Source of the DNA: Microcoleus sp.
GTDB lineage: Bacteria > Cyanobacteriota > Cyanobacteriia > Cyanobacteriales > Microcoleaceae
Direction of reading: 5' to 3'
NCBI GenBank assembly: GCA_042408215.1
Contig: JAYFMW010000006.1
Span: forward strand, 192,001 to 256,000
DNA: 64,000 nucleotides
Shown here: positions 17,966-48,504 of the stretch, piece after piece
Position numbering within the stretch: the stretch's first letter is position 1
How the letters are laid out: every line of letters begins with the position of its first letter
Notes under the pieces: generated by a model
Databases searched by the model: none
Seen by the model: only the letters and a program-made list of their open reading frames with translations
Told to the model about the DNA's origin: nothing
Program-made: the position numbers and the translations under genes

Positions 17966-18399
17966 AAAAAAGTTCGGTAAGTGGGAAACGAGCGAGTCTT
18001 TAGACCTGAGAGGGAAACGACGCGGGTGGTTTTAACCACCGTGAATCTTTTTTCCATTACCGCCTTGGAATTGCTTGACGGGAGTGTACTTTTGTAATGC
18101 ACTTTCGATGGGACAATTACCATTTCAAGCCTTGCAATCCTGTACGCATAATGGTTGCCTTTGTTGGGCCTCCCTTGCGGGGTAAAGTTCGCTTCGTCAA
18201 TGTTATTTGGGCTTGTTAAGGTAGTAGCACTATAAAGCGTGACTTTAGAATTGTTTAACTAATACCGACAGAGCAAGAAACTAGCGTCGCATTTCAGGGT
18301 GTCGTGACCCAAATAACGTAGCCAATTAAGGCTTAGACTGGTCAGGATAGCTCACAATTTCTTGCAAGCTCAGTGGCGTTGACTCCCTGAGTTCCTGAC
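17966..18399 (-). mobile_element. Non-autonomous IS200/IS605 (IscB-type) mini-element carrying an omegaRNA; iscB deleted
   Basis: Minus strand begins GTCAGGAACTCAGGG right after the DUF3038 TAA and ends right before ATGA (the DUF4335 start). Subterminal hairpins at both ends; only a short ORF remnant (ATG at 18149). Confidence 0.85.
18165..18399 (-). ncRNA. Stand-alone omegaRNA (HEARO-like) scaffold 1
   Basis: Ordered blocks TGACCAGTCTAAG, CTACGTT, GACACC, ATGCGACGCTAG, GTTAAACA and CATTGACGAAGCGAAC, shared with the omegaRNA upstream of iscB. Confidence 0.85.
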
Positions 18400-19005
18400 T
18401 TACTCAACCTCTCCATCAAACAGGCTAACCCAGAAGCGCTGCATTCCGGCAGTGCCTGTACAAAATAGCAGTTTGCTCAATAAGTTCAAAGCTAGTTCAT
18501 CGAGCTTGTCGTCGGAGTCGTAAGCTGCTACTAGCGATCGCTTGGGGTTCATGCGCGATCGAAAGTGAGCTCGAAAGCGTTCTAAATACTCGGCCAGCGG
18601 TAAGTGCTGGTTGAAGGGGATATTTCTCGATCGCGACTGCTGGGAGTCTTGCAGCAACTGGCGAATTGTCGCTGTTAGCTTGCGCGCCAAATTGCAGGCG
18701 ATCGCCACCAGCGCTTTTGCCTCCAGCGCGGTGAGGGAGCGACGCTGGGTATAGCGACGCAGCGGGTTAGTATTACGCAGCAGCCAAAGGGCAACCCGAT
18801 TTTTGATAATTGATTCCAATTCTAGTTCCTTTGACACTGCCAGCATTTCTTCAGCACCTCCGAGATACAAGGCTTCGATCGCCAACAACATCAGGTCAAT
18901 TTGCAATCTGGCGCGACGGGGACATCCGTCATCGGAGGGCGACAAATCTGGCAAACTGTCTAAAATCAACGGGTTTGACTCGGTAAGCGAAGTTTCTAAC
19001 GGCAT
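18400..19005 (-). CDS. DUF3038 domain-containing protein (start 19005 or 19077)
   Basis: IDLMLLAIEAL, RNTNPLRR, YLERFRAHFRSRMNP, KLLFCTGTAGMQRFWVSLFDGEV. Confidence 0.88.
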   Translation of the reverse strand: MPLETSLTESNPLILDSLPDLSPSDDGCPRRARLQIDLMLLAIEALYLGGAEEMLAVSKELELESIIKNRVALWLLRNTNPLRRYTQRRSLTALEAKALVAIACNLARKLTATIRQLLQDSQQSRSRNIPFNQHLPLAEYLERFRAHFRSRMNPKRSLVAAYDSDDKLDELALNLLSKLLFCTGTAGMQRFWVSLFDGEVE

Positions 19006-19112
19006 TACGATCACGGCAACATATATTCCAAAAAAACTATACGGACACAGAGGGGCTCCAGCATGAGAAATTCTCAACCAAGGACTCCTCTGAGATACTT
19101 GATTTTTATCAT

Positions 19113-19487
19113 CCGAAAATTGGGCGGAGCGTAGCGGAGGGTTGAAACCCCGTCCTTTTAGGACGGCTTTGCTTGATTTGATAAATTAGTTGCCTACCTC
19201 TTGCTAGGTGGAGGGGTATGGTTACCCCCTCCCTTGGAGATCTGGTTGTCGACCGCCCCTTTCGGGTGATGTTAGCGCGCGCCTTTGTTATAAGAGCTTT
19301 TTAAACCTGCAACACTGTTCCAGTGACTTTAGAACTGTTTAATTACAGACGACAGAGCCCAAAACTAGCTTCGCATTCAAGGAGTGTCGTGACTCAAATA
19401 ACGGAGTCAGTGAAGACTTAGGCTGGTCAGTACAGCTTGCTTCGATCGCTCTAACAAGCTCAGTCCCTTTAGGGCTGAGTTACTGAC
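19113..19487 (-). mobile_element. Non-autonomous IS200/IS605 (IscB-type) mini-element carrying an omegaRNA, no ORF
   Basis: Minus strand begins GTCAGTAACTCAGCCCTAAAGGGACTGAG and ends ...AAAGCCGTCCTAAAAGGACGGGGTTTC...CAATTTTCGG, followed by ATGA. Confidence 0.85.
19250..19487 (-). ncRNA. Stand-alone omegaRNA (HEARO-like) scaffold 2
   Basis: TGACCAGCCTAAG, CCGTTATTTGAGTCACGACAC, ATGCGAAGCTAG, TTAAACAGTTCTAAAGTCAC; closely similar to scaffold 1. Confidence 0.85.
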
Positions 19488-19565
19488 TCACTTTATTGTG
19501 TATTTTCAATCTAGCAGCAAGCGGTCATTGCAGGCGATCGAGTGCCAGAGTAGCAGAGTCCCAGA

Positions 19566-20075
19566 TCAATGTCCTTGATGCTCCTGTTTCGTCACCACTA
19601 CTCTTTGGGCCGTAAAATCAGTAGCCGCGGCATTCTCAACCAGACTAATTTTTCCTTTCAAGCTTTCTCCCTCCACAATTCCTCGCAGTTTCACCACACT
19701 CTTTTGACTACCGCTGCTTGTTGACTCGCCGCAACCTGTTAAATTGGGAACCACACCGGATAAATTCAACCCTTGAATTTCCCACTTGCCAATTAGAGAA
19801 GGTTTCTCCTCAGCAGTTTTTTTGCCATCCACAGGGCTGTTGTCTGACTTCAAATTACCGCTCAAATAAACCCCTGATTGCTCAATTGTCAACACCAACG
19901 AGTCAGATTTCAAACATTCTGGCCAATTTTGAGCATCAAAGCGATAACTTCCGGCAATTGCAGGAGCAGCTTTCAAATTTGTTTCGCCGTAGGCAGTTAC
20001 TACCTTAAAAAGTACGGCAACGAAGGCTATCGCAATTCCGTAAAATGCCAATGACTTGAGGTTGAAATGACTCAT
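19566..20075 (-). CDS. Hypothetical protein with an N-terminal TM, downstream of the antiporter
   Basis: Likely start [13 protein letters not shown] at 20075; the longer ORF extension is STRR-encoded. Confidence 0.75.
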
Positions 20076-20079
20076 AATT

Positions 20080-20395
20080 TTGGGAATGGGGAATGGGGAA
20101 TGGGGAATGGGGAATGGGGAATGGGGAATGGGGAATGGGGAATTGGGAATGGGGAATTGGGAATTGGGAATTGGGAATTGGGAATTGGGAATGGGGAATG
20201 GGGAATTGGGAATTGGGAATTGGGAATTGGGAATGGGGAATTGGGAATGGGGAATTGGGAATTGGTAGCAACTCACAAATAACCAATAACAAATAACCAA
20301 TAACAACAGTCAACTAACAACAGTCAACTAACAACAGTCAACTAACAACAGCCAACAGTCAACTGTCAACAGTTAACAGTCAACTGTCAACTAAC
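20080..20395. repeat. STRR arrays (GGGAATG/GGGAATT)n and AACAGTC/CAACTAA heptamers
   Basis: Directly visible. Confidence 0.95.
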
Positions 20396-22599
20396 TACAT
20401 TTGAGGAAGTATCGAAGCCAGGTGCGATCGCACTTTAACGTAACACCGCGCAATCAGCAGCGAAGAGTGACACCGAACTGCCAATTCATCAGTATATTGT
20501 CCCAAAGTTTGGCGCTCAATTCCCCACTCCCGACTCGTACCCGCAATAGTCAAATCAGCATTAGCAGAAGCCGCGACTACTGCTTGAATTGGCTCCGCCG
20601 CCTCCACAATCGGGGTTTCAATGCGCGATCGCACCTCCACCGGCAACTGCTCGATTACCCGCCGAAACTCGTAACTGAGCTCATTTTCAGCTTCACCGTC
20701 AACTGCCACCCGCAGCACCGTCAAACGGCGTTCCTGGCTATTAACTAACAGTCTTAGTGCCAATTCTAATCCCAAATCGTCGTGAATATTTGCCGCGTAA
20801 GGCACTAACAAATTATTCAACCGTTCCCGGCCTCTGTCAACAAAAATTGCTACATCCACTTTAGCAGTGCTCAAAATCTGACCGACACGTCCTCCCAAAC
20901 GGTTGCTGCTAAAAGTAGGTCTGTGCCATCCTACCAAGATTAAATCCGCGCGATCGAGTTCGGCAATTTGTGCAGTTTCCCGCGCTACGTCATTAGTAAC
21001 ACGAATAATGGGATGCACCAAGTTCCGAGCTTCTGGAGGCTGCAAACTCTCAATCAACTCTGATAATTTCCCTAGGCGCTCTTGGATAATGCGATCGGCT
21101 TCCGCAGGCGTACTTTCAAAGGCATAATCCTCACTTAATTCTATCAAACTCAGAGGATGAACCGCCGCCGACTGCAAATCGCTACCACCCATACCCGCAG
21201 CCGGCTGCGCCAGCGATACCGCCAGTTGCAGCAAACCTTTCTGGGTGCTGGGATTAGCAACTGGTACTAAAATTCGATAAGTTGGCAGCAATTCCTTATT
21301 GGTTTCTTTGAGATCGCCAGCACTTTTTGAATCTTCTAATTCTGAATCATCAGAGCTAAATTCTGAAATATCTAACCGAATCAGCCGTTTCGGATAAGTC
21401 CACTCCAACAGCGGCGAAGTCATAAAAGTTGTCACCAAAGCCATAATCACTAACATTGTAAATAAAATCGGCGAAATTACCCCCAGAGAAAGACCGATAT
21501 TCAGCACAATTAATTCGGTCAAACCGCGAGTATTCATCATCCATCCCAGGGCTGAAGCTTCGCGGTTGCTTATGCCACAAACTCTAGCAGCCGCGTAAGT
21601 ACCGACATATTTCCCAATAATTGCTACTCCTAAAACAGCGGCGCATAGCAACCACAATTCTGGACTATTTAGCAGGCCAATTTGAGTCCGCAAACCGCTG
21701 TAAGCAAAAAATATTGGCAGCAGAAATATTAGTACAAAGTCTTCGGTTTTTTCAGCTAATTCTCTGGTTAATCCCGCATTTTTGGGCATGGCCGCTCCCA
21801 GCAAAAATGCACCGAAGATTAAGTGAATTCCAATCCATTCAGTAATTAAGGCAGATGCTACAACTCCCATGTAAATTCCGGCCAGGACTAACTGAGTTAA
21901 TCTGCCGGTGCGGTTGTAGTGTTTGGAAAGCCGCTGCAAGAACCAGCGGACTACAGTCAGCATGAAAGCGATATAAATTAAAGATGCAAAAATTGTTGGC
22001 AAAGCGCCGATCATTGAATTAGTGCGAGTAACTGCGATCGCCACTGCTAACAAACACCAAGCTGTCACATCGTCTACCGCCGCGCAAGTCAGGGCTAACG
22101 TCCCCAATTTGGTATTCTGCAAGTTGTGTTCGGTAATGATTCTTGCCAGTACCGGAAATGCTGTAATTGACATCGCCGCCCCCAAAAACAGCGCAAAGGC
22201 AGTAAAAGAAACGCTGTTGTTTGAGACAATCGGATACAGCAGCAGTGCTAGCAAACTTCCCAGGGAAAATGGCACTAAAATGCTGACGTGGGAAGTCAAA
22301 ATTGCTGTGTCTAAGTTGTTTTTGAGGTACTTCGGATTCAGTTCCAAACCGATCAAAAACATGAAAAATATCAGCCCAATTTCCGATAGCACCTCCAGGA
22401 AAGGGACGGCCTCGGCTGGAAAAACTGCTGCTGCTAAATCTGGGGCTACCAAACCAAACAGAGACGGGCCGAGCATAATTCCGGCTACGATTTCTCCAAT
22501 GACTTGGGGTTGCTTGATCCAGCGGAATCCCAAACCGACAAGTCGGGACAGTGCGATGACAATTAGAACTTCAACTAGAACTAGAATGGCGATCGGCAT
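20395..22599 (-). CDS. CPA2 cation:proton antiporter with C-terminal USP-like domains
   Basis: QPQVIGEIVAGIMLGPS, SITAFPVLARI, AAVDDVTAW, MNTRGLTELIVLNIG; ILVPVANP. Confidence 0.92.
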   Translation of the reverse strand: MPIAILVLVEVLIVIALSRLVGLGFRWIKQPQVIGEIVAGIMLGPSLFGLVAPDLAAAVFPAEAVPFLEVLSEIGLIFFMFLIGLELNPKYLKNNLDTAILTSHVSILVPFSLGSLLALLLYPIVSNNSVSFTAFALFLGAAMSITAFPVLARIITEHNLQNTKLGTLALTCAAVDDVTAWCLLAVAIAVTRTNSMIGALPTIFASLIYIAFMLTVVRWFLQRLSKHYNRTGRLTQLVLAGIYMGVVASALITEWIGIHLIFGAFLLGAAMPKNAGLTRELAEKTEDFVLIFLLPIFFAYSGLRTQIGLLNSPELWLLCAAVLGVAIIGKYVGTYAAARVCGISNREASALGWMMNTRGLTELIVLNIGLSLGVISPILFTMLVIMALVTTFMTSPLLEWTYPKRLIRLDISEFSSDDSELEDSKSAGDLKETNKELLPTYRILVPVANPSTQKGLLQLAVSLAQPAAGMGGSDLQSAAVHPLSLIELSEDYAFESTPAEADRIIQERLGKLSELIESLQPPEARNLVHPIIRVTNDVARETAQIAELDRADLILVGWHRPTFSSNRLGGRVGQILSTAKVDVAIFVDRGRERLNNLLVPYAANIHDDLGLELALRLLVNSQERRLTVLRVAVDGEAENELSYEFRRVIEQLPVEVRSRIETPIVEAAEPIQAVVAASANADLTIAGTSREWGIERQTLGQYTDELAVRCHSSLLIARCYVKVRSHLASILPQM

Positions 22600-22929
22600 G
22601 GTGTTTTTAGATTGGGGATTTTTGCTAATGTTAAGAGCGACAAGTGCAAAGGGCAAAATTGGCGATCGAGAAAAATCGCGATCGGGCCCGATCGAAGATA
22701 GAAAGCACTGGAGACAACACCAACAAGGCAATTGTGTCACGATCAACTCAGCCTTGACAATCTTAAACCTGGATTTTTGATTTTGATGCCGCAACCAAGC
22801 CGGCGAAAATAAAGTTTTGATCGATCGCTTCTACATAAGTCCCTTCTACATCAGCGCCTTCTGCCTTCCCAATCTAAGATAGTCAGACAAAGTGGCGCAG
22901 GCTGTGATAAGCTAGAAAAGTTGTTTAAA

Positions 22930-23012: not shown

Positions 23013-23023
23013 TTAAAAATACC

Positions 23024-24031: not shown

Positions 24032-24059
24032 TGTGACTGACATTGGTCTCGGTCATTAG

Positions 24060-24165: not shown

Positions 24166-24264
24166 ATCATCAATATCAGATTAAAAACTAATAACTGATG
24201 ACTAATGACTAATGACTAATGACTAATGACTAAATAACTAATTTTGATTGGGAACAGAGAGAAG

Positions 24265-25979: not shown

Positions 25980-26119
25980 TTAGTCATTAGTCATTAGTCA
26001 TTAGTCATTAGTTGTTATTTTTTTTGGTTATTTTTGGGTTAGAATAGGCAATTATCAATCACCGATCACCCATAACCAATAACTCATTTAAAATCTCAAA
26101 TCTCAAATCTCAAATCGAT

Positions 26120-31118: not shown

Positions 31119-34100
31119 CTAAATCAGTGGCAGATTGATGGGGACAAAACTACCGCTTAACTGACTCGGTGATACACCGACAACAAGACCTAAGATTTGA
31201 TTCGATCCGGCAATCTTGATGACAGTATTTCCCTGATCGAAGTTCAGCAGTAAGTTCGATTCTGTTAATCCTTCTGTCAGTCCAATTTTATCTGCACCTA
31301 ATTGGAAGTCTAAGATAGCATCTGGCAGAAAATCACCAGTTACGGCCGCATTTTTTGGTAGGACAAAGGTATCACTGCCGGGGCCGCCAAATAAGATATC
31401 TCGACCTAAATCGCCGCTGAGGGTGTCATCGCCTTCGTTCCCTTTGAGGCGATCGTTGTCAGTACCTCCTAGGATTAAATCATTGCCTCGGCCGCCAAAA
31501 ATATTGTCATTTCCGCTGTTGCCGGTGAGGATATCATTGCCTTTATTGCCGTAGATGATGTCATCTCCGCCAACTCCGGCAAGGGTGTCATCACCAGCGA
31601 AACCAGCAATGCTATCTGCTGCGTCTATGCCAACTAAATTGTCGTTTTCAGGAGTTCCTAAAACTTGACGCAGTGGAGGACGAGGTGGTGTGGGTGTGGG
31701 TGTTGGTACAACATTATTTGTTGTCGATTCAGTACCGTCATTTGTGACTGTAGTGCTGGCGAAATCGACATCATTTGAGATATCGGGGTCGTATGTTTTA
31801 CTCGTTATGCTAGAGGTACCGGTGATGTTTCCAGTTGTCGGCGCGGTAACGGTAATGCTAACAGTTGAAATTTGACCTTTGGCTACATCGCCGAGGTCAA
31901 AAGTTAGTTCATTTCCTGACTGTTTGGTGGGGGCGATATTAGCCGAAACAAATTTAGCACCCTCTGGCAAGGTTTCGGTGAGGATTGCACCTTTAGCGTT
32001 ATCAGTGCCGTTGTTGGTGACTGCAACCGTGTAGGTGATGTTAGTTCCCGGTATTGCTGTATCGCGATCGGCTGTTTTAGTGACTGATAAATCTGCTGAT
32101 TCTGTCACTTTAATCGGCAGCGGTGCGTAGCTGAAAACAGGTGCGTTGTTTTCATCCATCGCCATTGCGTAGACGTAGTAATCGCCTGTGGGTAAGCCTT
32201 GAGTGTTCCAGATGAAGTTGCCTGCACCGTCTTTTTCCTCAAGGCCACCTTTGATTAAGATGCCATCGAAACCTTGGTTATCAGTGTCGTAGAACAGGCT
32301 AACTTTGGCAGTGGAGTCAGAGTCAAAAGCGTTGTAATTGATGGTGACATTTTGCCCACTCACATCTTTAGATGGGGCAGTCACTTGAACAGTCGGAGCC
32401 TGAGAATCCTGAAAAGCACTGTACTCCACAGTACCTAAAGCAGCGGAATTTGTTAAGTTGATATCCCAATTACCCGGTTGTGGATTGGCGATCATAACTG
32501 CTTTAGTAGTTGTACTGGTGAGGGCATCAACAATTGCAATTTTATTGGCTGCAAAATCCGACTCTTTGAAAATAGCTCCATTGGGTGCTTTGATTTCAAC
32601 AGGAGTATTAGCAGTGGCATTATCCCAGTTGGCGTTGAGAATTATCCACGGCGTGCCTGGGGCAACAGTAAAGCCTTGTATGGCGGAAGCTGTTTTATCT
32701 GCACTAGCTTCAAGCTGATTGCTAGAGGCAACTCTTTCGATTTGACTAGAGGTAACGATAGAACTATTTGTTCTTGGGACTGGTTGACCTACACTAGCCG
32801 AGGCTTTACCATCAAAGGAAACTTTGAGCGTCGCTTCATATTCTATTTTGATAGACTCCTTAAAGTTTAAAGGATTGAAGATTTCTATGGGTGGTAACTT
32901 ACCATAAGCCTGAACAAAGTCGTTCGATAAATCGTTGTCATTGGAGTAGTTGAGCGCAAATTCTGCTTGTGCAAGTGGCTGACCTTTGAAGTTTAATTTT
33001 CCACCGCCTACCTCATTTCCAAGAATTTTTACTTTGGGAATTTCAAGGGATATATCTGGGAATTTGACGTTGGCACTACCACCCATCATGATGTTGAAAT
33101 TCTTATCGGTAGTAAATTTGCTTTTGGTATTGATTACACCCCCAAGCATTGAGAACTCACCCTCAGCATTGAAGAATTTTTTATTCCAATTGAGTTCAGC
33201 CTCACCTTTGCCCTCTGCTAATCCACCTGCTATTTTGATAGTACCGTTTGTTTTGAGACGATCGCGAGTGATACTACCGCTTGCATTAATCTCAACAGCA
33301 GACCCAATAATAATATCTTTTGCCGCCCAAGAAGGCGGTGATATCTTGATATCAGGACCAGCAGTCACTTTAACATCGGTAAGACTGGTCTCAATTTGAT
33401 CGGGTTTGGCGAGATTATTCACTTGCCCTGATATGCTCTGAAGAAAAGCACCAGTAGCACCAATAGGTTTGTTGAGGTTACTACCTCCTATTTTGATAAA
33501 GTTTAATTTCTTATCAACAAAACCAAGTCCGCCAATTAGTTCAATTCCTGCCGGAATAAGCATTCTACCTTCGCCCTTAACCTCTTTGGCTTCTGTATCC
33601 AAAGATAATTTTGCATTTCTAATTTCCCAGACATTTGGCACCAGCTTGATATTGTCTAAAGAAAATGACCCTTTGACATCCACAATGGGGTTAAAGTCAC
33701 GGTTTATCTTAATGTAATTGGGCTCGGCAAAGTTGGCAGTAAAAGTGGGAGTAGGGGTGGGAGTGGGAGTGGGAGTTGGAGTTGGAGTTGGGGGAAATGG
33801 AAGAAACTCGGCTTTACCTTGAAGCGTAATCCCTGCTTTAGGCTGAGAAGTATATCCTAGAGCTAAACCTTTCCCTTTAACGTCCAGTAATTGGCCAATA
33901 GAGAAGTTTACATCTGGGAAATCAATTTTTCCTCCTGTCACGCTCACACCATTCTCGCTAATCAGGATTTTATTGTTGCCCCTGATGTCTAACGTTAAAG
34001 GGGAAGTAGGAGTGGGAGTTGGGGTGGGAGTTGCAGCGGAATTGGAAGTTGGAGTTGGAGTTGGAGTTTTATCTCGGCTGAAGATTCCAGGTGGGAATTG

Positions 34101-36830
34101 AAGCGTCCCTTCTAATTCAATTCCTTTTTCTGTAAAAGCTAAGTTGGTAAACTTAACTTCTGTTCCAGCTAGCTTAAACTGGTTTGCTACTGCTTGAGTA
34201 GTTTCCTGAACAGATTTTGCAACCGCTTTGCCAACGTCAAATTCTAAATCACCTTCATACAAAGGTACTGTTATTAAGTCACCAATAGTGGGTGAGAATA
34301 TCCCATTAGCTTTGATGGTTTTGTTGTCGTAACTAACAGAGCCATTAACACTCAACAACGGGGGGCGATCTTTTAACCCTATTTGAATAGTACCGGATGC
34401 TTCGTAGCGTTTGGTTGTATTGTTAAATACGAATTGACCGTTAACTACTTTGAGCCTCAGCGGACTTAGATCCGGCTCGCTAATAGGAGGTGGTGTCGGA
34501 GTTGGAATTGGAAGAGTTATGGGAGTTGGCGTCGGAGTCGGAGTTAGGGGTGTTGGTGTCGGAGTCGGAGTTAGGGGTGTTGGAGTTGGAGTTGGAGTTA
34601 GGGGAGTTGGAGTTGGAGTTGGAGTTAGAGGAGTTGGTGTCGGAGTCGGAGTTGGTGTCGGAGTTGGTGTCGGAGTTGGGGGTGTCGGAGTCGGAGTTAG
34701 GGGTGTCGGAGTCGGAGTTGGAGTTGGTGTCGGAGTTGGAGTCGGGGGAGTTGGTGTCGGTGTTGGAGTCGCGGTTACAATAGATGTGGCTCCAAATATT
34801 CCACCGCTAACACCCGTAACATCTTTATCAAGAGTGCCTACTCCTGTTGCTGGATTGATAACAATCCGCTGGTTAGCTCCGGTGAAGCCGAACAGATTCC
34901 CATCTTTGCTGGATAAACCATACACTTTACTGAAGCCGATGTTACCAATCTTGGTAGCCTGACCAGTTAAGGATATGGAGAATAAGCTGTTATCACTGTT
35001 GACCCCAGATGTAGCTAAAAAGCGATTACCAACAGGATCAAATAATAGATCGCCACTAGCATCAAAGTTAGATCCCAGATTAGCAACCAAGGATGCTGCA
35101 CCCGTAGTTTGATTAATGGTATATAAGTTAGAACCGCCAGTTGCATAAAGTACATTACTAGGAGAAAATGCCAAACCAACTATGTCTACACTTGCACCGA
35201 GGTTTCCAATCGGTGAGGATGAACCTGAGACTGGATCGACGCTGTACAACTGGCTATTAGTGATGCCAAACAACTTGTTGTCACTAGATAAGGCGATATC
35301 ATTTAAACTTGGGCTAGTTGCAATCTTTACAAACTTTCCTGCTGAGTCAACGCTTCCGACTTGCCCGCTATCTGTAGAAACCAAAGATGATGCAGTCCCC
35401 AAAGAGCTAGTTTTGAAGGTATAGTTTCCTGTCTCGTTCGCATTCAAGCTAGTAGCTCGAATCGCGTAATTCACACCGGGAATTGCTGTGAAACTTAACT
35501 GTGAATTCTTACCACCATTGATTAAGTCATCGTTAAAGGCAATCACTTCACCTGTTGAAGCATTTATCAGTTGTAGGTAACTGTCAATAGCCGCAGTCGA
35601 ATCCATGTTAACTTGAACTTGCTGCCAATTGGAAATCCCAGTCAAGGTATAGTCATCGGAGAAGCTACCCAATCTTTTAGGGTTTTTAGTATCAGTGCTA
35701 CTCAAACTTTCGTTAATCGTTTCCCCTAAGCCAATAGTCAGGGGTGTCGGGGTTGGTGTTGGAGTCGGAGTTGGAGGGGTCGGAGTTGGAGTTAAAGTTG
35801 CGATCGGGATAGACCCTGCACCACTAATCGTATAGCCATTGGTAAGACCTGTGATATCACTATCAAAAGTCCCTTCTCCTGTTGCTGGATCAATAATAAT
35901 CCGCTTATTATCTTCTGTGAAACCAACAAGAGTGCTTCCCTCAAAAGACAAGCCAACCACATCATCAAAGCCAATGTCACCAATTTTAGTGGATTGGCCA
36001 GTTAAGGACACAAAAAATAAGCTAGAGCTAAAACCACTACTTTTAGCAAACAAAAATCCGTTATTGACAGGATCAAATACTATGTCGCCACCTGAAGTTT
36101 CGTCCAAAGAAAAGTCTGCTATTGATGATGCAGTCGCATTTTGAGGATTAACGGTGTATAATTTAGAGCTATTAGAGCTATTAGAACGACTAGCTCCATA
36201 CAGTGTGCCATTAGGCAAAAATTCCAGGGCAGCCATCTGCACACCAGAAGGGAAGTTGCCAATCACCGACGATGAACCTGAGTCTGGATCGATACTGTAC
36301 AACTGGGTAGGGAGGCTATCTCTCTTAATACCCAAAAGCTTGTTGTCATTAGAAAAAGCAATGTCAGCAAATTCTGAGTTACTTGCGGCTTCAACAAAAT
36401 TTCCTATCGATACAAATCTTCCTAATGGATCAACTGTTCCGGCTTCTTGTCCATTCCTCGTAACAACTAAAGATGATGCAGTTCCTAACGAGCTAGTTTT
36501 GAAGGTATAGTTTCCTGTCTCGTTCGCGTTCAAGCTAGTAGCTCGAATCGCGTAATTCACACCCGGAACTACTGTGAAACTTAACTGTGAATTCTTAAGA
36601 CCATTAATTAGGTCATCGTTCTCGGCAATCACTGCACCTGTTGAAGCATTTACCAGTTGTAGATAACTGTCAATAGCAGCAGTCGAATCCATGTTAACTT
36701 GAACTTGCTGCCAATTGGAAACCCCAGTCAAGGTATAGTCATCGAAGAAACTACCTAATTTTTTAGGATTTTCAAGATCAGTGCTGCTCAAACTTCCGTC
36801 AATCGTTTGCCCTAAGCCAATATTCGTCAT
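31119..36830 (-). CDS. Giant secreted surface protein: two PPC + beta-propeller modules, PT linkers, DUF11, RTX-type Ca-binding C-terminus
   Basis: Duplicated N-terminal module; [21 protein letters not shown] (DUF11); GxxGxD nonapeptides; C-terminal [13 protein letters not shown]. Confidence 0.85.
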
Positions 36831-40959: not shown

Positions 40960-41001
40960 GTGAACAATACCTGGACAAACATTTACAACCGACAAATTCA
41001 T
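40960..41001 (+). pseudogene. Original 5' fragment (14 codons) of the gene at 42692-43945, separated by the iscB element
   Basis: GGAGG RBS, then GTG AAC AAT ACC TGG ACA AAC ATT TAC AAC CGA CAA ATT CAT joins in frame to CCA GAA GAA at 42692. Confidence 0.75.
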
Positions 41002-41139
41002 CTCAGCCCCCAGGAGACCCACACCATAGCTGTACTCAGCTTGGTGTTGGGAGGAATGGGGGTGAATTGCGAAACGTCCCCTGAGTGAATTTTTGCGTTA
41101 GCAAAAACAGGGATGGGGACAGTTGAGTAATTCACAAAC

Positions 41140-42411
41140 TCAAAATGCATAGTTATATCCGTCCTTTTGGTGAATGGTTTTGCAATATTTGAAATTAATA
41201 CCCTGAACCAAGGTATCTGCGGAGATATTGAACGAACCGCTAGACCTAACGGCAACACGCCCGACATACGTGCCAATTTTCTTGCCACTGGTAACAGTTG
41301 CCCTCACGATGTCGCCAGTCTGAAACCCTTTGACAAACTTAAGTCGTGGCACATAGCGAGATGGGAAACCAAATTTATCCGTGCGACACATTTGACGAGT
41401 ACCGTATCCCGTCGTCTTAATTAACAACGGCTTGTTTGTCAGCACAGATAACGATTCAACTTGACCAACACAAGCTGCATCAAGCCAATGGGTTTTAGCT
41501 AGTTTCAATCGAGTCCGGTTGAACTTAGTTAATCCACCCGAACCAGTCGAAACAGGCAATCCCGTTTCTTTAAGGCGATTGAACAATGCCCATCTGGTAG
41601 AGTTGACGGCTGCTGCATCCTTGAGAGGACGTTTAGCTTGTGCAAGAATGCACTTCAGAACGTCTGGTTTCTTGGCTAAGAATTGCTCGACATCCTGAGT
41701 ACCTTTCTTGAGGTTGCACTTCTCACAAGCAAGGCAAAGGTTAGAAATGCGATCGCTGCCACCTTTGGCTTTGGGATGAATATGTTCAATTTGCAAAGGT
41801 ACATTTTCAACACTACAGTAAGCGCATTTCCTGTCCCATTTTTTCAATAGATATTCCCGAACTTCGTAGCCAGCTAATTCCCCTTGCTGATATTCAATGC
41901 CTGAATTTTCAGGATTTTCTAATTGTTGTAAATCAAACCTGACCAGTTCTTGAACAATTGAACCGATGGGGGCAAACCTAATTAATTTGTTCACCCAAGT
42001 TAGGGTAGTTTCTACACGATGTTGCAGACTTGGAGCCAGCCAGCCTTTGGTGCGGGTGCGATTTAAAAATCTTGCCTGACGATAACGAGTATGACGATTT
42101 CTCCTTGAGCGACGCAACTCGCTTCGGGACTCCAAAGACGCTTTAATTGTTTGACCTCGATGGCTTAATTCCGCACCAAAAATAACTTGCTCGTCTTGAA
42201 CCAAAGCAATCCCTGTAGTTTGAGAACCCGGATCTAATTTGAGAATAATTAATTCAGGAGTTGCTGTCACCGCCTTTTTGAGAATGATGGTAAATGGATA
42301 CCTTCTAAAAACCGCAGCTTTTCCTGCCGTTAACAACTTGTGAGCCATTGACGGCTTACAGGGTGTGAGCGGTTTTTTATTGGTATCAAGTACGAAAACG
42401 AGATTAGACAT
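41140..42411 (-). CDS. iscB: RNA-guided endonuclease IscB
   Basis: PLMP-like KKPLTPC, RuvC-I LDPGSQTTG, bridge helix RRSRRNRHTRYRQARFLNR, RuvC-II ELVRFD, HNH EHIHPKAKGG...CEKCN, RuvC-III HWLDAAC. Confidence 0.96.
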   Translation of the reverse strand: MSNLVFVLDTNKKPLTPCKPSMAHKLLTAGKAAVFRRYPFTIILKKAVTATPELIILKLDPGSQTTGIALVQDEQVIFGAELSHRGQTIKASLESRSELRRSRRNRHTRYRQARFLNRTRTKGWLAPSLQHRVETTLTWVNKLIRFAPIGSIVQELVRFDLQQLENPENSGIEYQQGELAGYEVREYLLKKWDRKCAYCSVENVPLQIEHIHPKAKGGSDRISNLCLACEKCNLKKGTQDVEQFLAKKPDVLKCILAQAKRPLKDAAAVNSTRWALFNRLKETGLPVSTGSGGLTKFNRTRLKLAKTHWLDAACVGQVESLSVLTNKPLLIKTTGYGTRQMCRTDKFGFPSRYVPRLKFVKGFQTGDIVRATVTSGKKIGTYVGRVAVRSSGSFNISADTLVQGINFKYCKTIHQKDGYNYAF

Positions 42412-42419
42412 TGTTGTGT

Positions 42420-42691
42420 CTCTCCACTTGCGCGTAATGTTAGCTTCGTCAATGTTTAAGGTCGGTAACTATGTCAAAAGCACTGGTTTAACCCTTAAGC
42501 CTGTTTAACTTCTGAGTTCTAGAGCAGTGGACTAGCTTCGCATCCACTGGTAGGTCTTTAACTCTTGCCCTAAACGTAGTAAAAGTGGCTCCACTGAGCG
42601 AAGCCGAAGTGTTCTCTTACTTAGACTGGTCAACTAGGCGAATTTCTTGCCCCCGCTATATCGGTACTCCGATTAGCGGTGGGTGATTGAC
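42420..42691 (-). ncRNA. omegaRNA (HEARO-like) of iscB
   Basis: TTGACCAGTCTAAG, CTACGTT, GGATGCGAAGCTAGTCC, GTTAAACA and CATTGACGAAGCTAACATTAC immediately upstream of iscB. Confidence 0.9.
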
Positions 42692-43945
42692 CCAGAAGAA
42701 CAGCTACTTTACAACCACTGGCTGGAGCTTGTACAGCTAGAGACGCCGGCCGAACTCATCGATCGCTTTCGGACTTTATTTATCCACTGTACAGGATATC
42801 CCGATCGCTCGATCGCCCAGGCCCTGGAAAAATTAGCAGCATCAAAACAGGCGGAACAAGAATTTAAATACATTTTGAACCGCTGCTGTCACATCCCGAT
42901 CAACCGCTGGCAAACATACCCCAGCAAGCAAGCAGCCATCCCCGAATTGATTGCTGTGTTTGAAGATGCGCCCTTCGTAGTATTTGGAAACAGTCGCTCG
43001 CGGGCGATCGGCTGCATACCCCAATTAGTACATCAATTTATCGCAAGCGAACAGTATCTCACACTCAAACGCTTCGCCCAAGTCATCACCCACAATTGGG
43101 AAGACAGCAGCAACAGCAAAACCCCTACTAGCAAGGCTCTCGGAACTTTAATTCCCCGCTACCCCTACCTTTACCAACACTGTCTCCTCAGCCAAGACAG
43201 CACCTACGAACAGCAGAAAATCATCAAAAAAATCCAAGCTCAAAAGCAGCAGCAATTTGAAATCGACCTCTCTCAATATGTAGCTCACCAAGTGAGAAAA
43301 ACCCAAATAGCCCGCCGAGCAACCTCTATCTCCTTCGCTCGTACTATACATAGTATAAAAAATCCCACCCTCTTGAGCGACCCCGAACTGTTCTGTGCCC
43401 TCAAGCAATTTGTCGGAAAAGTAGAAGGCGCCGATACTTACAGACAGCTCGCCTCGCGCTTCAGAGCGAACGCCAGCCAAACTCAGAACTACGGATCCTT
43501 TAAAGACGACTTGTACGAATACCTAATTTCTTCTGTCACCGACCACCGCTACGGCAAATGTCAATTTAACGATAAATTGTATAAGCAATTACAAAGTACC
43601 TTTCCCCACAGCGATGCTCAGAAGTTCAACGAATTTTTAACGATCAGAACTTGCAGCCAGTTGTTAAACTTTTTAGTAGTAGAGAGTCCTCAGCGACCCA
43701 ACCACTTTGTGTTCATTGACCTGATCTCAAACCTCGGCCCCACCCAAACCACAGGTCTGCTGCTGAAAATTTTACTAATTTGCCACCAAGTCAAACCCTA
43801 CCTAGAAAAGCGGCTGGCAATTTTGTTCGCCCACTACGAATTCTCGACCAGAGCAGGCGTAATGTGGTTAGTCAAAGCCCTCGAAAACCTGAATCTCGCT
43901 TTGAGTACCAACTTTGGCAAGGTAGACGTATCTTTCCTGCGGTAA
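42683..43945 (+). CDS. Conserved cyanobacterial hypothetical protein; the current GTG start lies inside the transposon end
   Basis: ILNRCCHI.INRW, RYPYLYQH, NPTLLSD, RTCSQLLNFLVVE, LENLNLALSTNFG. Confidence 0.8.
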   Translation: MIDPEEQLLYNHWLELVQLETPAELIDRFRTLFIHCTGYPDRSIAQALEKLAASKQAEQEFKYILNRCCHIPINRWQTYPSKQAAIPELIAVFEDAPFVVFGNSRSRAIGCIPQLVHQFIASEQYLTLKRFAQVITHNWEDSSNSKTPTSKALGTLIPRYPYLYQHCLLSQDSTYEQQKIIKKIQAQKQQQFEIDLSQYVAHQVRKTQIARRATSISFARTIHSIKNPTLLSDPELFCALKQFVGKVEGADTYRQLASRFRANASQTQNYGSFKDDLYEYLISSVTDHRYGKCQFNDKLYKQLQSTFPHSDAQKFNEFLTIRTCSQLLNFLVVESPQRPNHFVFIDLISNLGPTQTTGLLLKILLICHQVKPYLEKRLAILFAHYEFSTRAGVMWLVKALENLNLALSTNFGKVDVSFLR

Positions 43946-43995
43946 ATAGCATTGGCACAACTAACTACTAAAACCCGTTGAAAAGAGGCTATTCT

Positions 43996-44175
43996 CGAAA
44001 AATTGGGTGGAAAACCCCGTCCTAAAAGGACGGCTTTGTGTTAAAATGGCTTCAAGTCGGGATAGGAAACTGCCACGACTCTAAATGGACCTAGAGAAAA
44101 CGTAAGACTATTTCGGTAGCAGATTTCTTAGAAGTGTCAAGAATCACCGCACCTGATAGTCGGTGAGTGTTTCAA
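43996..44175 (+). mobile_element. 180-bp non-autonomous IS605/TnpB-type mini-element (left end + right-end guide-RNA scaffold, no ORF)
   Basis: Left hairpin CCCCGTCCTAAAAGGACGGCTTT is near-identical to the tnpB element's left end. Right end GAATCACCG...CGGTGAGTGTTTCAA matches the tnpB right end GAATCACCG...CGGTGAGAATGTCAA. Confidence 0.85.
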
Positions 44176-44197
44176 ATTTTAAAGTACCAAGTGTGAA

Positions 44198-44312
44198 TCA
44201 GATTCGGTTGCAGGCTTTGTTCATTGCTACAGAATTGTCTAAAAACTTGCCCTTCTGTATCGGCAGGGAACTCTCCGAAACTGAAATCTTACACCATCTA
44301 AATTTTGGAGTT
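44198..44312 (+). promoter_or_regulatory. Conserved rbp 5'-UTR boxes
   Basis: TTCGGT near 44203 and TCTCCGAA at 44272, complementary to the TTTGGAG RBS region; resembles the leader boxes of cold-inducible cyanobacterial rbp genes. Confidence 0.55.
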
Positions 44313-44319
44313 ATTCCCC

Positions 44320-44667
44320 ATGTCGATATACGTCGGTAACTTATCCTATAAAGTTACCCAAGAAGACATCACCGCCGTCTTCGCTGAATACGGAACCGTT
44401 AAACGAGTACATCTACCTACAGACAGAGAAACGAGTCGCCCCCGTGGCTTCGGTTTTGTAGAAATGTCAACCGATGCAGAAGAAGATGCAGCCATTACGG
44501 CTCTCGACGGAGCAGAGTGGATGGGTCGTGACCTCAAGGTTAACAAAGCCAAGCCTCGCGAAGATGAAGGCGGCCGGGGCGGCGGCAGCCGGGGCCCCGG
44601 CGGCCCAGGAAAATTTCCTCGCGGAGAAAGAGGAGGAGAAAGAGGAGGAGAAAGAGGACGTTATTAA
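44320..44667 (+). CDS. rbp: RRM RNA-binding protein with a Gly-rich tail (Rbp family)
   Basis: MSIYVGNLSY, RGFGFVEM, WMGRDLKVNKAKPRE. Confidence 0.96.
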   Translation: MSIYVGNLSYKVTQEDITAVFAEYGTVKRVHLPTDRETSRPRGFGFVEMSTDAEEDAAITALDGAEWMGRDLKVNKAKPREDEGGRGGGSRGPGGPGKFPRGERGGERGGERGRY

Positions 44668-44776
44668 TTTCCTCGGAATTTCCTCTGACGCAGATTTGAG
44701 ATTTGAGATGGGAGATCAAGAGCACCTAGCTCCGAACCGCCTTCTCTTCAAATTTCCTGCTCTACGGTAAATACAC

Positions 44777-44813
44777 GCTAAAGCCAAGGGTCAAGCCCTT
44801 GGCTTTTAGCTTT
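44777..44813 (+). terminator. Probable intrinsic terminator after rbp
   Basis: GCTAAAGCCAAGGG-TCAAG-CCCTTGGCTTTTAGC hairpin. Confidence 0.6.
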
Positions 44814-44815
44814 GA

Positions 44816-44910
44816 CAGTCCTGGACGCAAAAACAGAAGAGCAACACTATTGGTAGCGGTAAGGTGTTCTTAGGCGCACCCTACAGATCTAGTTTATGCG
44901 TCCAGGGCTA
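44816..44910. mobile_element. 95-bp MITE with 14-bp TIRs and a 5-bp TSD
   Basis: CAGTCCTGGACGCA...TGCGTCCAGGGCTA flanked by TTTGA on both sides. Confidence 0.8.
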
Positions 44911-44997
44911 TTTGAGTTAAAAGCGCGATTAGCGAATCTAGTTAAGACCGATCGAATTTTTGGTTGAGATGGCAGACCCCTGCTGTGTACTCAGAGT

Positions 44998-45279
44998 CTA
45001 TTCGTCAGATTCGATGCTACTGCTCAATCCGTGATTGTTCAGCGTTTCGCAGTAAAACTCAGCGTGTTCTAGAGCACAAACAATCACCAGTCCCAGCCCG
45101 TTAGTGTGAGCTTCCATCATAATGTTCACAGCCTGTGGCTGAGTCAGACTCGGTACCGTCTGCATCAGAGTCTGCACCACATACTCCATAGGGTTGAAAT
45201 CATCATTGTGGAGCAGAACGCGATAGCGCGGTGCAAGCTTACGGACCGTTGAAGGCTTTACAAGAATTTCGACAGACAC
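44998..45279 (-). CDS. clpS: ATP-dependent Clp protease adaptor ClpS
   Basis: PRYRVLLHNDDFNPMEYVV, IMMEAHTNG, EHAEFYCE. Confidence 0.96.
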   Translation of the reverse strand: MSVEILVKPSTVRKLAPRYRVLLHNDDFNPMEYVVQTLMQTVPSLTQPQAVNIMMEAHTNGLGLVIVCALEHAEFYCETLNNHGLSSSIESDE

Positions 45280-45594
45280 TACTTTGTATCCTCCTGCTGG
45301 GTCAAATGTTAAAATTTGTGAATAATCTAGAGCCGGATTCCTCCGCTGTGCAATGGTATCCGACTTTTAGTTATTTTAAATGAATGGAGATGCTGTTAGG
45401 TAATGAAATTCAAAGAAAGCAGCCAAAAAGTCGATCGCCACCTTTGAACCCAAAACCGGACGCAGATGCGGTTTTTTCCAACTCCAGTATCCAAAGCCAA
45501 TCGCCCTACCTTCCTAGCGCCGTACAATTAGAATACAACAGATCAAAATAACAAACTACTACCTGTCGAGTCTCCAGAACTGAGTGAACGCTAT

Positions 45595-46197
45595 ATGAAA
45601 CGCAAACCTAAACCCTTCAACGACAGATTCAGCGCCGACGCACCAGGGGGAGAAGATGACTCCGACTACTCCGGCCCCTTTGGCGGACAGTCGCGACGCC
45701 AACCTCAGTCTGGTAAACCCTCCTTCCTCAACTACACCTCCCTGGGCATTTTAGCAGCCGTTTTTATTCTCGGAATTGGTATTGGCATTGCTTTTAGCTC
45801 CACCGCTACCATTAGCCCAGAAAATGTAGCATCCCGCGAATTTATCGATCGCAGTGCCCCGAATCCCGAACTTTGCGTGCAGTTTGGAGCCAGCGCGATG
45901 GTGACAGATATGCGCGCCTACGTCACCCTCAACCCTTTCAACGTCTACATTTCACAGCCGACTATGCGCCCCGGATGCGTGCTGCGAACCAACAACTGGG
46001 CAATTCTGGAACAAAGAAAACTCGTCAGCCAAAACCAAGTGCGCGAGTGCAAAAATCGGATGAATACATTTGGCTTCACCGGTGCCCTGGAAAGTCAACC
46101 CGACATCAACTGTATCTATCAAAACGACAGCGCCAAAAACCTGTTTATCAACCAGCCCGGTTCAGTGGCTCCAACCACAGATAATCAGAATTTCTAA
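45595..46197 (+). CDS. DUF3172 domain-containing protein
   Basis: FILGIGIG TM, APNPELCVQFGASA, PGCVLR..NWAILE, CKNRMNTFGFTG. Confidence 0.85.
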   Translation: MKRKPKPFNDRFSADAPGGEDDSDYSGPFGGQSRRQPQSGKPSFLNYTSLGILAAVFILGIGIGIAFSSTATISPENVASREFIDRSAPNPELCVQFGASAMVTDMRAYVTLNPFNVYISQPTMRPGCVLRTNNWAILEQRKLVSQNQVRECKNRMNTFGFTGALESQPDINCIYQNDSAKNLFINQPGSVAPTTDNQNF

Positions 46198-46203
46198 CTT
46201 TGA

Positions 46204-46310
46204 TAGTCCTGGACGCATCAAAACCTTAAGAAACCGGGTTTTTTGGGTTTTGATGGGCTGTAACGAAGTCTTGGAGCAAAAACCCGGTTTCTGACCACCC
46301 GTGCGTCCAG
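46204..46310. mobile_element. MITE of the GTCCTGGACGCA family with an eroded right end
   Basis: TAGTCCTGGACGCA...TGCGTCCAG with an internal AGAAACCGGGTTT/AAACCCGGTTTCT palindrome. Confidence 0.6.
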
Positions 46311-46413
46311 TTGTTTCGGAATGATTTAACCGCAGAGACCGCAGAGACCGCAGAGTCGGAGAAGAGAGAGATGAATCATTCTGATACCAACGGATTTGAT
46401 ATGACTATTAAAG

Positions 46414-47142
46414 CTACTGTTTGGGAAGCGGTTCACCAAAGTTGATGATGATTATCCGCCGTTCTGGTGCGGCAGGACGGGGTATAGGAGCAACAGGTAT
46501 CCCCCGCCGTTCTTGAACCGCAACCCTGACTAAAGGCACTGTTATCGGTCGGATTTGGTCGTTTTGAGTTGTTGGCTGGGAAGGATTTCGCTCGTAAGTT
46601 TGAGTGGCGATCGGCTGGGGCTGCGGTACTTGTGTTGTTGATGGGGTTTGGGTTTCGGTTGTGTTACGACTCGAACTTGGGGCGATCGCGGGCACTAACA
46701 CCCAGCGATTGGCGGCCCCGATTTTTTGGAATTGAGTGCGATCGGGCTTTACAGCAAATCCTGGTGCCAACTCCATCACAATTCTCACCCTTCCCGGTTG
46801 AATTTGACTCATTCCCACAGAACGTACTAATCCTTTTGGGTATAATTGAGTCGCATCTACTGAGATTTCAGTATTGGGCAAATCCACAGCAATTTGATTT
46901 GGGTTTAATACAGAATATTTGGGCGTGGTTCCCTCTGGGAGGGTAATTACTAACTCATTTGTGGCCGGATCGAATTGCCAAATTGGGACTGTGGAAGCGG
47001 TGGCTTGTTGTTGTCCGATTTGCATCGAAACTGTGGCGGCGACTGCTAGACTCAGACTCAGTGACTTGCTTGCTAACAATCTGGGTGTTAGAGAATTAAC
47101 AGTCAATTTTTGTAAGTCTTGCCAAAATCTTTTGTATTGCAT
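46414..47142 (-). CDS. AMIN domain-containing protein
   Basis: Signal-like segment, WQFDPATNEL.I.LP..TTP, NPNQIAVDLPNT, RVRIVMEL; likely start MQYKRFW. Confidence 0.8.
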   Translation of the reverse strand: MQYKRFWQDLQKLTVNSLTPRLLASKSLSLSLAVAATVSMQIGQQQATASTVPIWQFDPATNELVITLPEGTTPKYSVLNPNQIAVDLPNTEISVDATQLYPKGLVRSVGMSQIQPGRVRIVMELAPGFAVKPDRTQFQKIGAANRWVLVPAIAPSSSRNTTETQTPSTTQVPQPQPIATQTYERNPSQPTTQNDQIRPITVPLVRVAVQERRGIPVAPIPRPAAPERRIIIINFGEPLPKQ

Positions 47143-47165
47143 GGCTGCTGTGTGAAAGTTTTGAT

Positions 47166-48504
47166 TTGACATTCTCACCGGGCTGAAGCCACGGTGATTC
47201 TAAACATCACTGTTTAGGCTTCCTCTTTCGGCGATCCGACTTATTTAAAAGAGTTTCCTCATTCAAACTCTTGTTGATATCTCCAGAGGCGTTTGAGGTT
47301 TCCGTGTGCCCCACGGTACGCAATCCAAGTTCTAATATGTTGCGAGCGGCGTTCCAATCTCGGTCTAAAACGAATCCACAATGTGGACAAATATGTGTTC
47401 TTTGACTTAATGACTTTTTCGCCACTTTCCCACAACTAGAACAATTTTGACTTGTATAGTGTGGCGGTACTGCAACAGTTGCCACCCCAAACACTTTGCC
47501 AAAATATTCAATCCAATTTCTAAAAGCTGTCCAAGCCGCATCTGATATCGACTTGGATAGCTTTTTGTTTTTGACCATGTTACGCACCTGCAAGTCTTCA
47601 TAGGCTACCAAGTCGTTAGACTGGACTACGCACCTTGCTAATTTCACAGCAAAGTCTTTACGCCGCCTGCTTACCTTGAGGTGTTTTCTACTTAAACAAT
47701 TTCGAGCCTTAGCTCTATTTTTAGAACCTTTCTGCGTTCGAGAAAGTCTACGATTAAGCTTTTTTAACGATCTTTCGGACTTTCTTAGATGGCGCGGGTT
47801 CTCTACGGTGTTACCGTCAGAGTCTGTGTAGAAATGAGTTAGCCCTACATCCAAACCGATTGTTTTTCCGGTCTGCTCCCGCTTTTCGTTTCGTTCAGTG
47901 TCAATACAAAATTGCACGTAGTAGCCATCGGCTCGACGAACTACGCGCACTCGTTTAACTTGACTTAGCCGATAGAAATGTAGGTCACGAGTTCCCCATA
48001 ATTTAAAAATTCCGGCTTTAAATCCATCAGTGAAAGTTATATTTCGTCGGTCTTCAGAAAGCTTCCACCCACAGGTCTTGTATTCAACAGAACCGTGCGT
48101 TTCATGCTTTTTGAAGTGCGGAAAACCTTTCTTTCCTGGTTTTGCCTTCTTGCAGTTGTCAAAGAATCGTGCAATCGCTGACCAAGCTCTTTCAGCAGAA
48201 GCTTGCCTTGCCATTGAGTTGAGTTTACTGGCCCAAGGAAATTCTTTGGCAAGAACTACGCAATAAGCGCTTAAGTCGTAGCGACCTACCCCTGGGGTAT
48301 CCATCCAGTACCTGATGCAGCTATTACGAATGAAGCGAGCAGTACGAATGGCTTCGTCTAGCCGTTCGTACTGCTCGCTTTTCCCTTCTAGCTTGGCTTC
48401 AAATACTAACATTTACGTCGAGTGAGTGAATATAAAGACTATAACAGAGTTCTGGAGAAATTAAAGCCGTCCTATAAGGACGGGGCTTTAGACCCAGCTT
48501 TTTG
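47166..48504 (-). mobile_element. IS605/IS1341-group tnpB-only element
   Basis: Minus strand TTAC|CAAAAAGCTGGGTCT-AAAG-hairpin left end; right end GAAT-hairpin...TCAA. Confidence 0.9.
47207..48412 (-). CDS. tnpB: RNA-guided endonuclease TnpB
   Basis: RuvC-I IGLDVGL, RuvC-II AYEDL, Zn finger CSSCG...CPHCG, RuvC-III DRDWNAARNI. Confidence 0.96.
   Translation of the reverse strand: MLVFEAKLEGKSEQYERLDEAIRTARFIRNSCIRYWMDTPGVGRYDLSAYCVVLAKEFPWASKLNSMARQASAERAWSAIARFFDNCKKAKPGKKGFPHFKKHETHGSVEYKTCGWKLSEDRRNITFTDGFKAGIFKLWGTRDLHFYRLSQVKRVRVVRRADGYYVQFCIDTERNEKREQTGKTIGLDVGLTHFYTDSDGNTVENPRHLRKSERSLKKLNRRLSRTQKGSKNRAKARNCLSRKHLKVSRRRKDFAVKLARCVVQSNDLVAYEDLQVRNMVKNKKLSKSISDAAWTAFRNWIEYFGKVFGVATVAVPPHYTSQNCSSCGKVAKKSLSQRTHICPHCGFVLDRDWNAARNILELGLRTVGHTETSNASGDINKSLNEETLLNKSDRRKRKPKQ

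Follow-up and report, generated by a model that had tools for sequence, protein, structure and literature searches.

HEARO RNA, the omegaRNA of the nuclease IscB, is reportedly the subject of Weinberg 2009 and Altae-Tran 2021. Passages of Meers 2023 (10.1101/2023.03.14.532601) already describe PATEs (IS200/IS605 elements with transposon ends and without a protein gene) whose RNAs must act in trans, state the requirement for a host promoter, and report an orientation bias for iscB, not tnpB. Stand-alone omegaRNAs in host chromosomes have been reported as well (PMC11610941, second-hand). What is known therefore comprises ISC elements inserted at N/ATGA (the slash marks the junction), omegaRNA-bearing PATEs, the promoter logic, and stand-alone omegaRNAs. 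Here we analyse a window, the whole 64,000-nucleotide (nt) stretch at positions 192,001–256,000 of the forward strand of contig JAYFMW010000006.1 (Microcoleus sp., assembly GCA_042408215.1; coordinates below are those of the window), that contains two protein-less IscB guide-RNA elements, E1 and E2, an iscB element, a tnpB element, and a protein-less TnpB-orientation element, M3. The genome analysed is designated G000, related genomes G005, G006, G130 and so on, fetched loci by L-numbers, and contigs by C-numbers.

E1 and E2 are gene-less IS200/IS605 mini-elements that carry a complete IscB guide scaffold and probably borrow a Y1 TnpA for movement and an IscB for re-cutting their emptied sites. 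Directly seen are scarless insertion at N/ATGA, presence and absence among relatives, an intact scaffold, and intact genes for TnpA and IscB at other loci. In particular, the HEARO matches of E1, E2, and the window iscB RNA span model positions 1–211 (140.5, 126.9, and 121 bits; Rfam RF02033 cut-off, 83 bits). An earlier reading of the window's letters (the original prediction) had called E1 and E2 omegaRNA-only elements and proposed a HEARO covariance-model search as a check; both scores, and the empty sites that confirm the ends, bear out that call, and empty sites in relatives confirm the coordinates given for all five elements. Specifically, the E1 site is occupied in G005 and empty in the other 15 same-genus loci, and contigs of public runs X10 and X14 skip E1 exactly, joining 17965 to 18400, while the E2 site is empty in G005. 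Both empty sites read guide plus ATGA, as IscB requires. Comparison with the relatives' loci indicates that the conserved start of the DUF4335 gene is the ATG at the E1 junction.

No iscB or tnpB homology was found between the ends of E1, E2, or M3. The elements have the features of IS200/IS605 PATEs, being gene-less, having shared subterminal hairpin ends, and inserting scarlessly beside a 4–5 nt motif; those of a classical miniature inverted-repeat transposable element were not found, the two ends of an element being dissimilar and the empty sites lacking a target duplication. Intron families gave no match to the elements (a check for an IStron), and the E1 skip of an RNA run is also present in a DNA run. 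A promoter scan of 17900–19800 was uninformative (5 weak sites versus 1.7 expected). Read depth over the elements was discarded as evidence of transcription: it is far above the flanks in 4/4 RNA runs, with a smaller excess in 4 DNA runs, and it sums family copies and other organisms.

The RF02033 search returned 70 matches genome-wide, 64 of them above cut-off. An iscB sequence lies behind 25 matches and none behind the remaining 45 (orphans); 15 of the iscB copies have full-length open reading frames (ORFs), the other 10 are broken, and the six top-scoring HEARO matches of the genome are orphans. Left ends, mapped with patterns seeking ATGA, were placed in classes A, B, and C for 42 of the 45 orphans and 16 of the 25 iscB copies. 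Type A is common to many tnpB elements and M3, and where type A ends adjoin tnpA they carry a TGAC junction, not ATGA. Type B ends with an ATGA junction adjoin two intact tnpA genes, C13:77171 and C30:360795, the candidate trans Y1 TnpA genes for this class. The absence of tnpA from the window, claimed in the original prediction, stands (no match within the 64 kb), and the genome-wide search proposed there gave 20 Y1 tnpA matches elsewhere. Since intact tnpA and iscB are present elsewhere in the genome, trans-acting parts exist. Unbroken iscB was present in 10/10 other mini-bearing genomes tested, a count with no control set of genomes without minis.

Several irregular members of the family were noted. 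Four orphans of G000 (elements 0, 4, 45, and 56; e.g. L091) stack a second, different left end between the type A end and ATGA, nine type A hairpins of G000 have the junction GGAG, and iscB elements 39, 54, 58, and 59 have a different 5′ end and no mappable left end. At L032 (G005:C591), the HEARO RNA is broken near its 3′ end by an insert whose start resembles that of a group II intron.

The scaffold of the orphans appears maintained. Across 37 orphans (8 of the 45 are omitted: three unmapped, three with long inserts, and two not fetched), the 36 scaffold pairs outside the right-end hairpin, which should not be needed for transposition, are 95.7% paired, and 19 show two-sided changes, including the pseudoknot. 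None of 500 shuffles reaches this value, and slid controls give 34–45%; the structure comes from the same alignment, to which one Rfam pseudoknot was added manually, and kinship and recombination inflate the two-sided counts. Most orphans are 75–90% identical to their nearest neighbour, still with 96% pairing. The RNA tree places most orphans with iscB-bearing elements 11, 15, 26, and 67, apart from the window iscB RNA, which is of a different subtype. Elements 11 and 26 combine an intact iscB with an orphan-type RNA and type B ends, and the E1 and E2 RNAs share 81–82% identity with that of intact element 11 (contig C8) and 57% with the window iscB RNA. A broken iscB element on C23 has exactly the RNA of E1.

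Each of the 42 mapped orphans has one extra folded 3′ module, X1 in 20 and X2 in 22, so that the suggestion in the original prediction that the minis may keep only the guide scaffold has to be revised. X1 comprises four helices with 25 pairs, of which 97.3% are paired and 10 show two-sided changes (0/500 shuffles). It has 22 strong matches in the genome, with 0 on iscB-bearing copies; of 121 genomes sampled from the phylum, 15 contain it, and these span three families. Neither module matches an Rfam family, the HEARO model ending before both, and M3 has no Rfam match of note. Away from HEARO elements, where group II introns might carry them, X1 and X2 were found nowhere in G000 and not in the group II-like insert of L032, the introns of other genomes being outside the search. 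With these extra modules, the orphans are not plain iscB deletions. An origin of E1 by simple deletion of the C23 iscB element was ruled out, its middle being the X1 shared with other orphans.

The orphans lie preferentially at host start codons. As a caller-free criterion, we asked whether the junction ATGA opens an ORF of at least 60 amino acids (aa), with non-genic ATGA sites as baseline. This holds for 30 of the 42 mapped orphans, versus 3356 of 16028 non-genic sites (20.9%; p 3e-12). By our own gene caller (6121 genes), which missed the conserved start at E1 and PetL and for this reason was used alongside the ORF-length rule, a called start lies at the junction of 29/42 orphans versus a baseline of 17.5% (p 3e-13). 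The next gene is on the same strand for 40/42. Of the ORFs opened, 28/31 are Pfam host proteins, including S16, PetL, PetM, a signal peptidase, and a translation GTPase (40 of the 42 loci fetched). The pattern recurs in G006, where 22/27 mapped orphans pass the same rule (35 of 37 HEARO matches fetched). A young burst there, comprising 10 copies that are 97–99% alike, is at starts in 10/10 cases, and seven of its sites are empty starts in G000; age alone therefore does not explain the bias. In G130, from another family, 10 of 20 copies with an ATGA junction (from 23 of 26 X1 loci read) open at least 100 aa (p 6e-4 on a borrowed baseline).

TnpB-orientation elements with the same ATGA target, whose RNA runs outward from inside the element, served as control. 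In G000, 4/20 such elements (intact elements picked by eye) are at starts and 10/20 have the same-strand arrangement; in other genomes, 6/28 are at starts (34 loci, 6 unusable). The IscB guide lies outside its element, so a host promoter is needed, whereas the TnpB RNA has no such need; a bias in protein-less copies but not in same-target controls is thus expected if IscB uses their RNAs in trans. Such use is indirectly favoured by the covariation and by the start-codon bias absent from the matched control. Under a transcribed-leader model, which takes the non-coding ATGA sites on the sense strand that lie at genes or shortly before them, 40–62% of sites are starts, depending on leader length, so that "any transcribed non-coding ATGA" accounts for most of the bias.

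Used within the control was a young family of ~400-bp TnpB-orientation PATEs with type B ends and the ATGA target, nine copies in all, represented by L207 (G000:C5:493619–494024) and L208 (C17:92760–93152). Separately, the same start codons are occupied across genomes at L023/L079, L054/L125, L035/L062/L182, L159/L117, and L174/L115. Three pairs compared among these shared-start loci are only 58–64% identical; the shared starts could be hot spots, products of homing, or one old insertion later converted.

The mechanism that would connect these observations runs as follows. TnpA would peel a copy out and rejoin the flank to ATGA. With the guide outside the element, RNA would be made only where a host promoter reads in; IscB from another locus would bind the orphan RNA and cut guide plus ATGA, which would be present only on the emptied chromosome copy, and repair from the occupied copy would restore the element. 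Copies in untranscribed DNA would be lost and copies inside genes purged, which would leave non-coding sense-strand ATGA sites, about half of them starts. On the TnpB side, M3 would correspond to these elements and has a predicted promoter of its own, its TTCT junction making the guarding of its site doubtful. A bolder extension, which we hold only tentatively and consider doubtful, is that the family survives by parasitising host translation starts: the gene's ribosome-binding leader would become guide, borrowed IscB would let copies home into empty alleles, including those in the DNA of other strains, RNA parts would recombine, and X1, in the iscB slot, would process the guide RNA or couple it to the host mRNA, which would keep essential genes working.

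Each guide consists of the host sequence that flanks its insertion. Among 88,897 ATGA/GTGA sites of the genome, the 58 guides gave one perfect match, that of element 15, on the near-duplicate contig C28; 7/58 guides reach 14/16 versus 1/58 shuffled guides, with seed lengths like those of shuffles, and we claim no trans targets. A CRISPR-like defence would have guides from or against foreign DNA; none was found, with phage and plasmid collections outside the search. The guide repertoire would be a set of selfish site guards that serve the elements, not host defence or immune memory; it points to self-preservation, and an aim at foreign DNA is not supported. As to the duplicate contigs, C23 (32 kb) is a 97–100% duplicate of part of C28. 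In the broken iscB element of C23, the guide flank is joined to the start of a response-regulator gene, and ~190 nt of leader present on C28 are missing; a perfect target for the guide of this element lies on C28. The difference may reflect either a second haplotype or an adjacent deletion.

Several observations weigh against borrowed IscB as the keeper of these sites. The start share in G130 is only 50%, and in G000, 13 of 20 excluded ATGA ends (one-ended, nested, damaged, or doubtful) lie at or near starts, so start sites also preserve relics. The G000 control was picked by hand, with no TnpB partner identified for it, and at least one "start", that at element 4, has an in-frame ATG four codons upstream. 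E1 is a mosaic, helices swap as blocks, and compensatory changes in the scaffold may be inherited or spread by recombination. ATGA as the target-adjacent motif of these IscBs is deduced from junctions only, and its presence at 16/16 mapped iscB junctions follows a pattern that itself required ATGA. The perfect guide-plus-ATGA target of element 15 persists on C28, which may be a second haplotype. The window iscB element is antisense within its host gene, a position in which its guide cannot come from a sense promoter. Finally, among the listed RNA-run contigs, which pool family copies, none crosses an occupied junction with 31 letters on either side of it.

The most serious rival holds that insertion itself, or tolerance by the host, determines the start-codon position: TnpA or the folded RNA-side modules would favour transcribed leaders, or the U-rich left end would provide a usable translation start and such copies would persist, the RNA being kept for a cis role on the mRNA. 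The bases before the ATG at element ends are indeed 59% U, versus 29% in native flanks, all 42 mapped orphans have a module absent from IscB-bearing copies, damaged ends are still present at starts, and Meers 2023, in the passages cited, leaves "preferentially generated or retained" open. However, the controls of other genomes (6/28 at starts) share the U-rich type B end class and the target and are unbiased, Shine-Dalgarno pairing at element ends is no stronger than in the native flank (mean −1.9 versus −2.9 kcal/mol; 4/30 versus 6/30 at −5 or below), and a cis role leaves the kept IscB-type pseudoknot pairs unexplained. We regard this account as unlikely.

Retention through IscB must also be set against plain decay, in which the orphans would be decaying deletion derivatives of iscB elements, inert PATEs that TnpA moves and recombination homogenises, with an RNA that now has no function. 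The 10 broken iscB copies, the identity of the E1 RNA to that of the broken C23 element, the mosaic copies, and the damaged and nested ones all fit this account. It nevertheless appears improbable: the orphans lack remnants of iscB and instead contain conserved folded modules that show covariation of their own, they hold the six best HEARO scores, they retain 96% pairing at 75–90% neighbour identity, and inert elements should match the 21% of the control. Least probable of all, in our judgement, is adoption by the host as regulators, whether as a folded leader gating translation or as an IscB-bound RNA controlling the downstream gene. Elements do precede ribosomal and photosynthesis genes, the same genes are occupied in different genomes by copies that are dissimilar at the three sites compared, and X1 is conserved across three families; but sites are polymorphic even among near-identical strains, and the recent bursts indicate selfish spread, not fixed regulators.

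The remaining elements of the window (Table 1) include the two nucleases. The iscB element and the tnpB element are intact, as predicted. The iscB ORF is unbroken, with 471 bits to guided_IscB NF040563 (cut-off, 175), RRXRR and HNH Pfam matches, and solved IscB relatives, and it shows the expected PLMP-type N terminus, split RuvC, RRXRR helix, HNH, and length of ~420 aa. The tnpB ORF is likewise unbroken, with 286 bits to guided_TnpB NF040570 (cut-off, 100), RuvC D/E/D motifs, and a zinc finger. The expected acidic and His motifs are present. The iscB site is empty in G008 and G032, the tnpB site in G005, and the M3 site in G009 and G012. The end of the iscB element contributes a GTG (42683) in frame with the interrupted host ORF; this GTG reopens 420 codons and may rescue the gene, whose protein has no Pfam or NCBIfam match.

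Table 1. Coordinates of the elements of the window and of their parts.
Feature	Position	Strand	Description
E1, protein-less IscB guide-RNA element (PATE)	17966–18399	−	434 bp; between DUF3038 gene stop and DUF4335 gene start codon
E1 omegaRNA scaffold	18182–18399	−	HEARO RF02033, 140.5 bits; RNA 5′ end = transposon right end
E1 3′ module X1	18054–18154	−	Four-helix folded RNA in the iscB slot; no Rfam family
E1 left end, type B	17966–18050	−	Class found beside two intact tnpA genes (C13, C30)
E1 target motif ATGA	17962–17965	−	Start codon of host DUF4335 gene (16766–17965)
E1 predicted guide	18400–18419	−	Final 20 nt of DUF3038 gene (18400–19077)
E2, protein-less IscB guide-RNA element	19113–19487	−	375 bp; in leader, 36 nt before first DUF3038 start codon
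E2 omegaRNA scaffold	19266–19487	−	HEARO, 126.9 bits
E2 3′ module X2	19192–19256	−	Short hairpins in tandem; loops similar
E2 left end, type A	19113–19175	−	Hairpin class common to tnpB elements and M3
E2 predicted guide	19488–19507	−	Host intergenic flank
E2 target motif ATGA	19109–19112	−	Opens 12 codons only
iscB element	41002–42691	−	1690 bp; type C left end
Window iscB omegaRNA	42434–42691	−	HEARO, 121 bits
iscB ORF	41140–42411	−	Unbroken, 423 aa
iscB element target motif ATGA	40998–41001	−	Junction
Host ORF interrupted by iscB element	40960–43945	+	Cut after ~14 codons; element antisense
M3, protein-less TnpB-orientation element	43996–44175	+	180 bp; left-end hairpin, TG-extended −10-like motif, ~125 nt TnpB right-end RNA
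M3 predicted guide	44176–44195	+	3′ flank; junction TTCT
tnpB element	47166–48504	−	1339 bp; predicted guide 47146–47165
tnpB ORF	47207–48412	−	Unbroken, 401 aa

M3 had been described as consisting of a TnpB right end only; both ends are in fact present, its left-end hairpin being common to tnpB elements and E2, and it belongs to a family of ~180-bp TnpB PATEs. The tnpB element is one of six near-identical copies in the genome, all with a TTTAC junction. The TTCT junction of M3, which stands in empty alleles too, occurs in 2 of 126 type A ends, neither with an intact tnpB, and the M3 RNA resembles other tnpB right ends (74–82%; the best, at 82%, with junction TTAT), not that of the window tnpB. 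M3 as a guide for the window TnpB was accordingly rejected, the junctions differing and the right-end RNA being non-cognate, and with a TTCT junction the copy may be unguarded at its own site. That the five elements form one working set is thus not supported, M3 mismatching the window TnpB and the E1 and E2 RNAs being only 57% identical to that of the window iscB.

The tnpB element and M3 (regions 47146–47165 and 44176–44320) lie just upstream of same-strand genes, an AMIN-domain gene and an RNA-binding protein gene, respectively, into which their outward RNAs could read. Elsewhere in the window, 7-nt tandem repeat arrays lie between genes at 12430–12610, 16530–16770, 20070–20390, 24180–24230, and 25980–26020; long intergenic repeats of this kind are common in filamentous cyanobacteria, and genes and repeats together suggest that the host is one. 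Very large ORFs occupy 31119–36830, 48755–53476, and 53598–59327. Two of them contain Pro/Thr-type repeats; the third, which directly adjoins the left end of the tnpB element, has an N-terminal domain resembling sacsin.

The family offers a natural, countable test of the retention question for OMEGA systems, namely whether copies are generated or retained at transcribed sites, for which the same cells supply a matched control, and what may be population-level evidence for IscB acting in trans on dozens of guides. It supplies, in each genome, ~40 natural variants of the scaffold whose helices covary and which could serve the engineering of IscB guides, adds two RNA modules (X1 and X2) without an Rfam family, and presents a mobile element that repeatedly replaces the 5′ leader of essential cyanobacterial genes. 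Our literature search found no report that protein-less omegaRNA elements are placed at start codons, and none on X1 and X2; supplements, Weinberg 2009, and Altae-Tran 2021 were outside the search and may hold such reports.

The closest described relatives, in the passages of Meers 2023 cited above, are the ISGst1/ISGst5-related PATEs of Geobacillus stearothermophilus, which share gene-less ends, an omegaRNA used in trans, and retention by empty-site cutting. The IscB motif TTCAT given there on the transposase strand corresponds to ATGA here, and the bias toward host transcription, reported for iscB, is shared. In contrast, orphans here outnumber iscB copies (45 versus 25), the bias is in protein-less copies and at start codons, and X1 and X2 are extra; those passages assert use in trans for TnpB and contain no such test on PATEs of the IscB type. 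ISC elements of Microcystis (ISC1-1_MA and IS605B-1_MA; Kapitonov et al. 2016, PMC4810608, as far as the text consulted goes) share the 5′-GT terminus, insertion 5′ of ATGA without duplication, a left end common to iscB- and tnpB-type elements of opposite gene orientation, and mobilisation in trans. Unlike E1 and E2, they encode protein; the RNA was then unknown, and "start codon" occurs 0 times in that text. With respect to the HEARO/IscB omegaRNA family (RF02033), E1 and E2 match the full model, and X1 and X2 lie beyond its end. The window tnpB element and M3 share with IS605 tnpB elements and their reRNA PATEs the usual left end, the TCAA right terminus, and a guide from the 3′ flank; M3 differs from the usual members in its rare TTCT junction, tied to no intact tnpB found.

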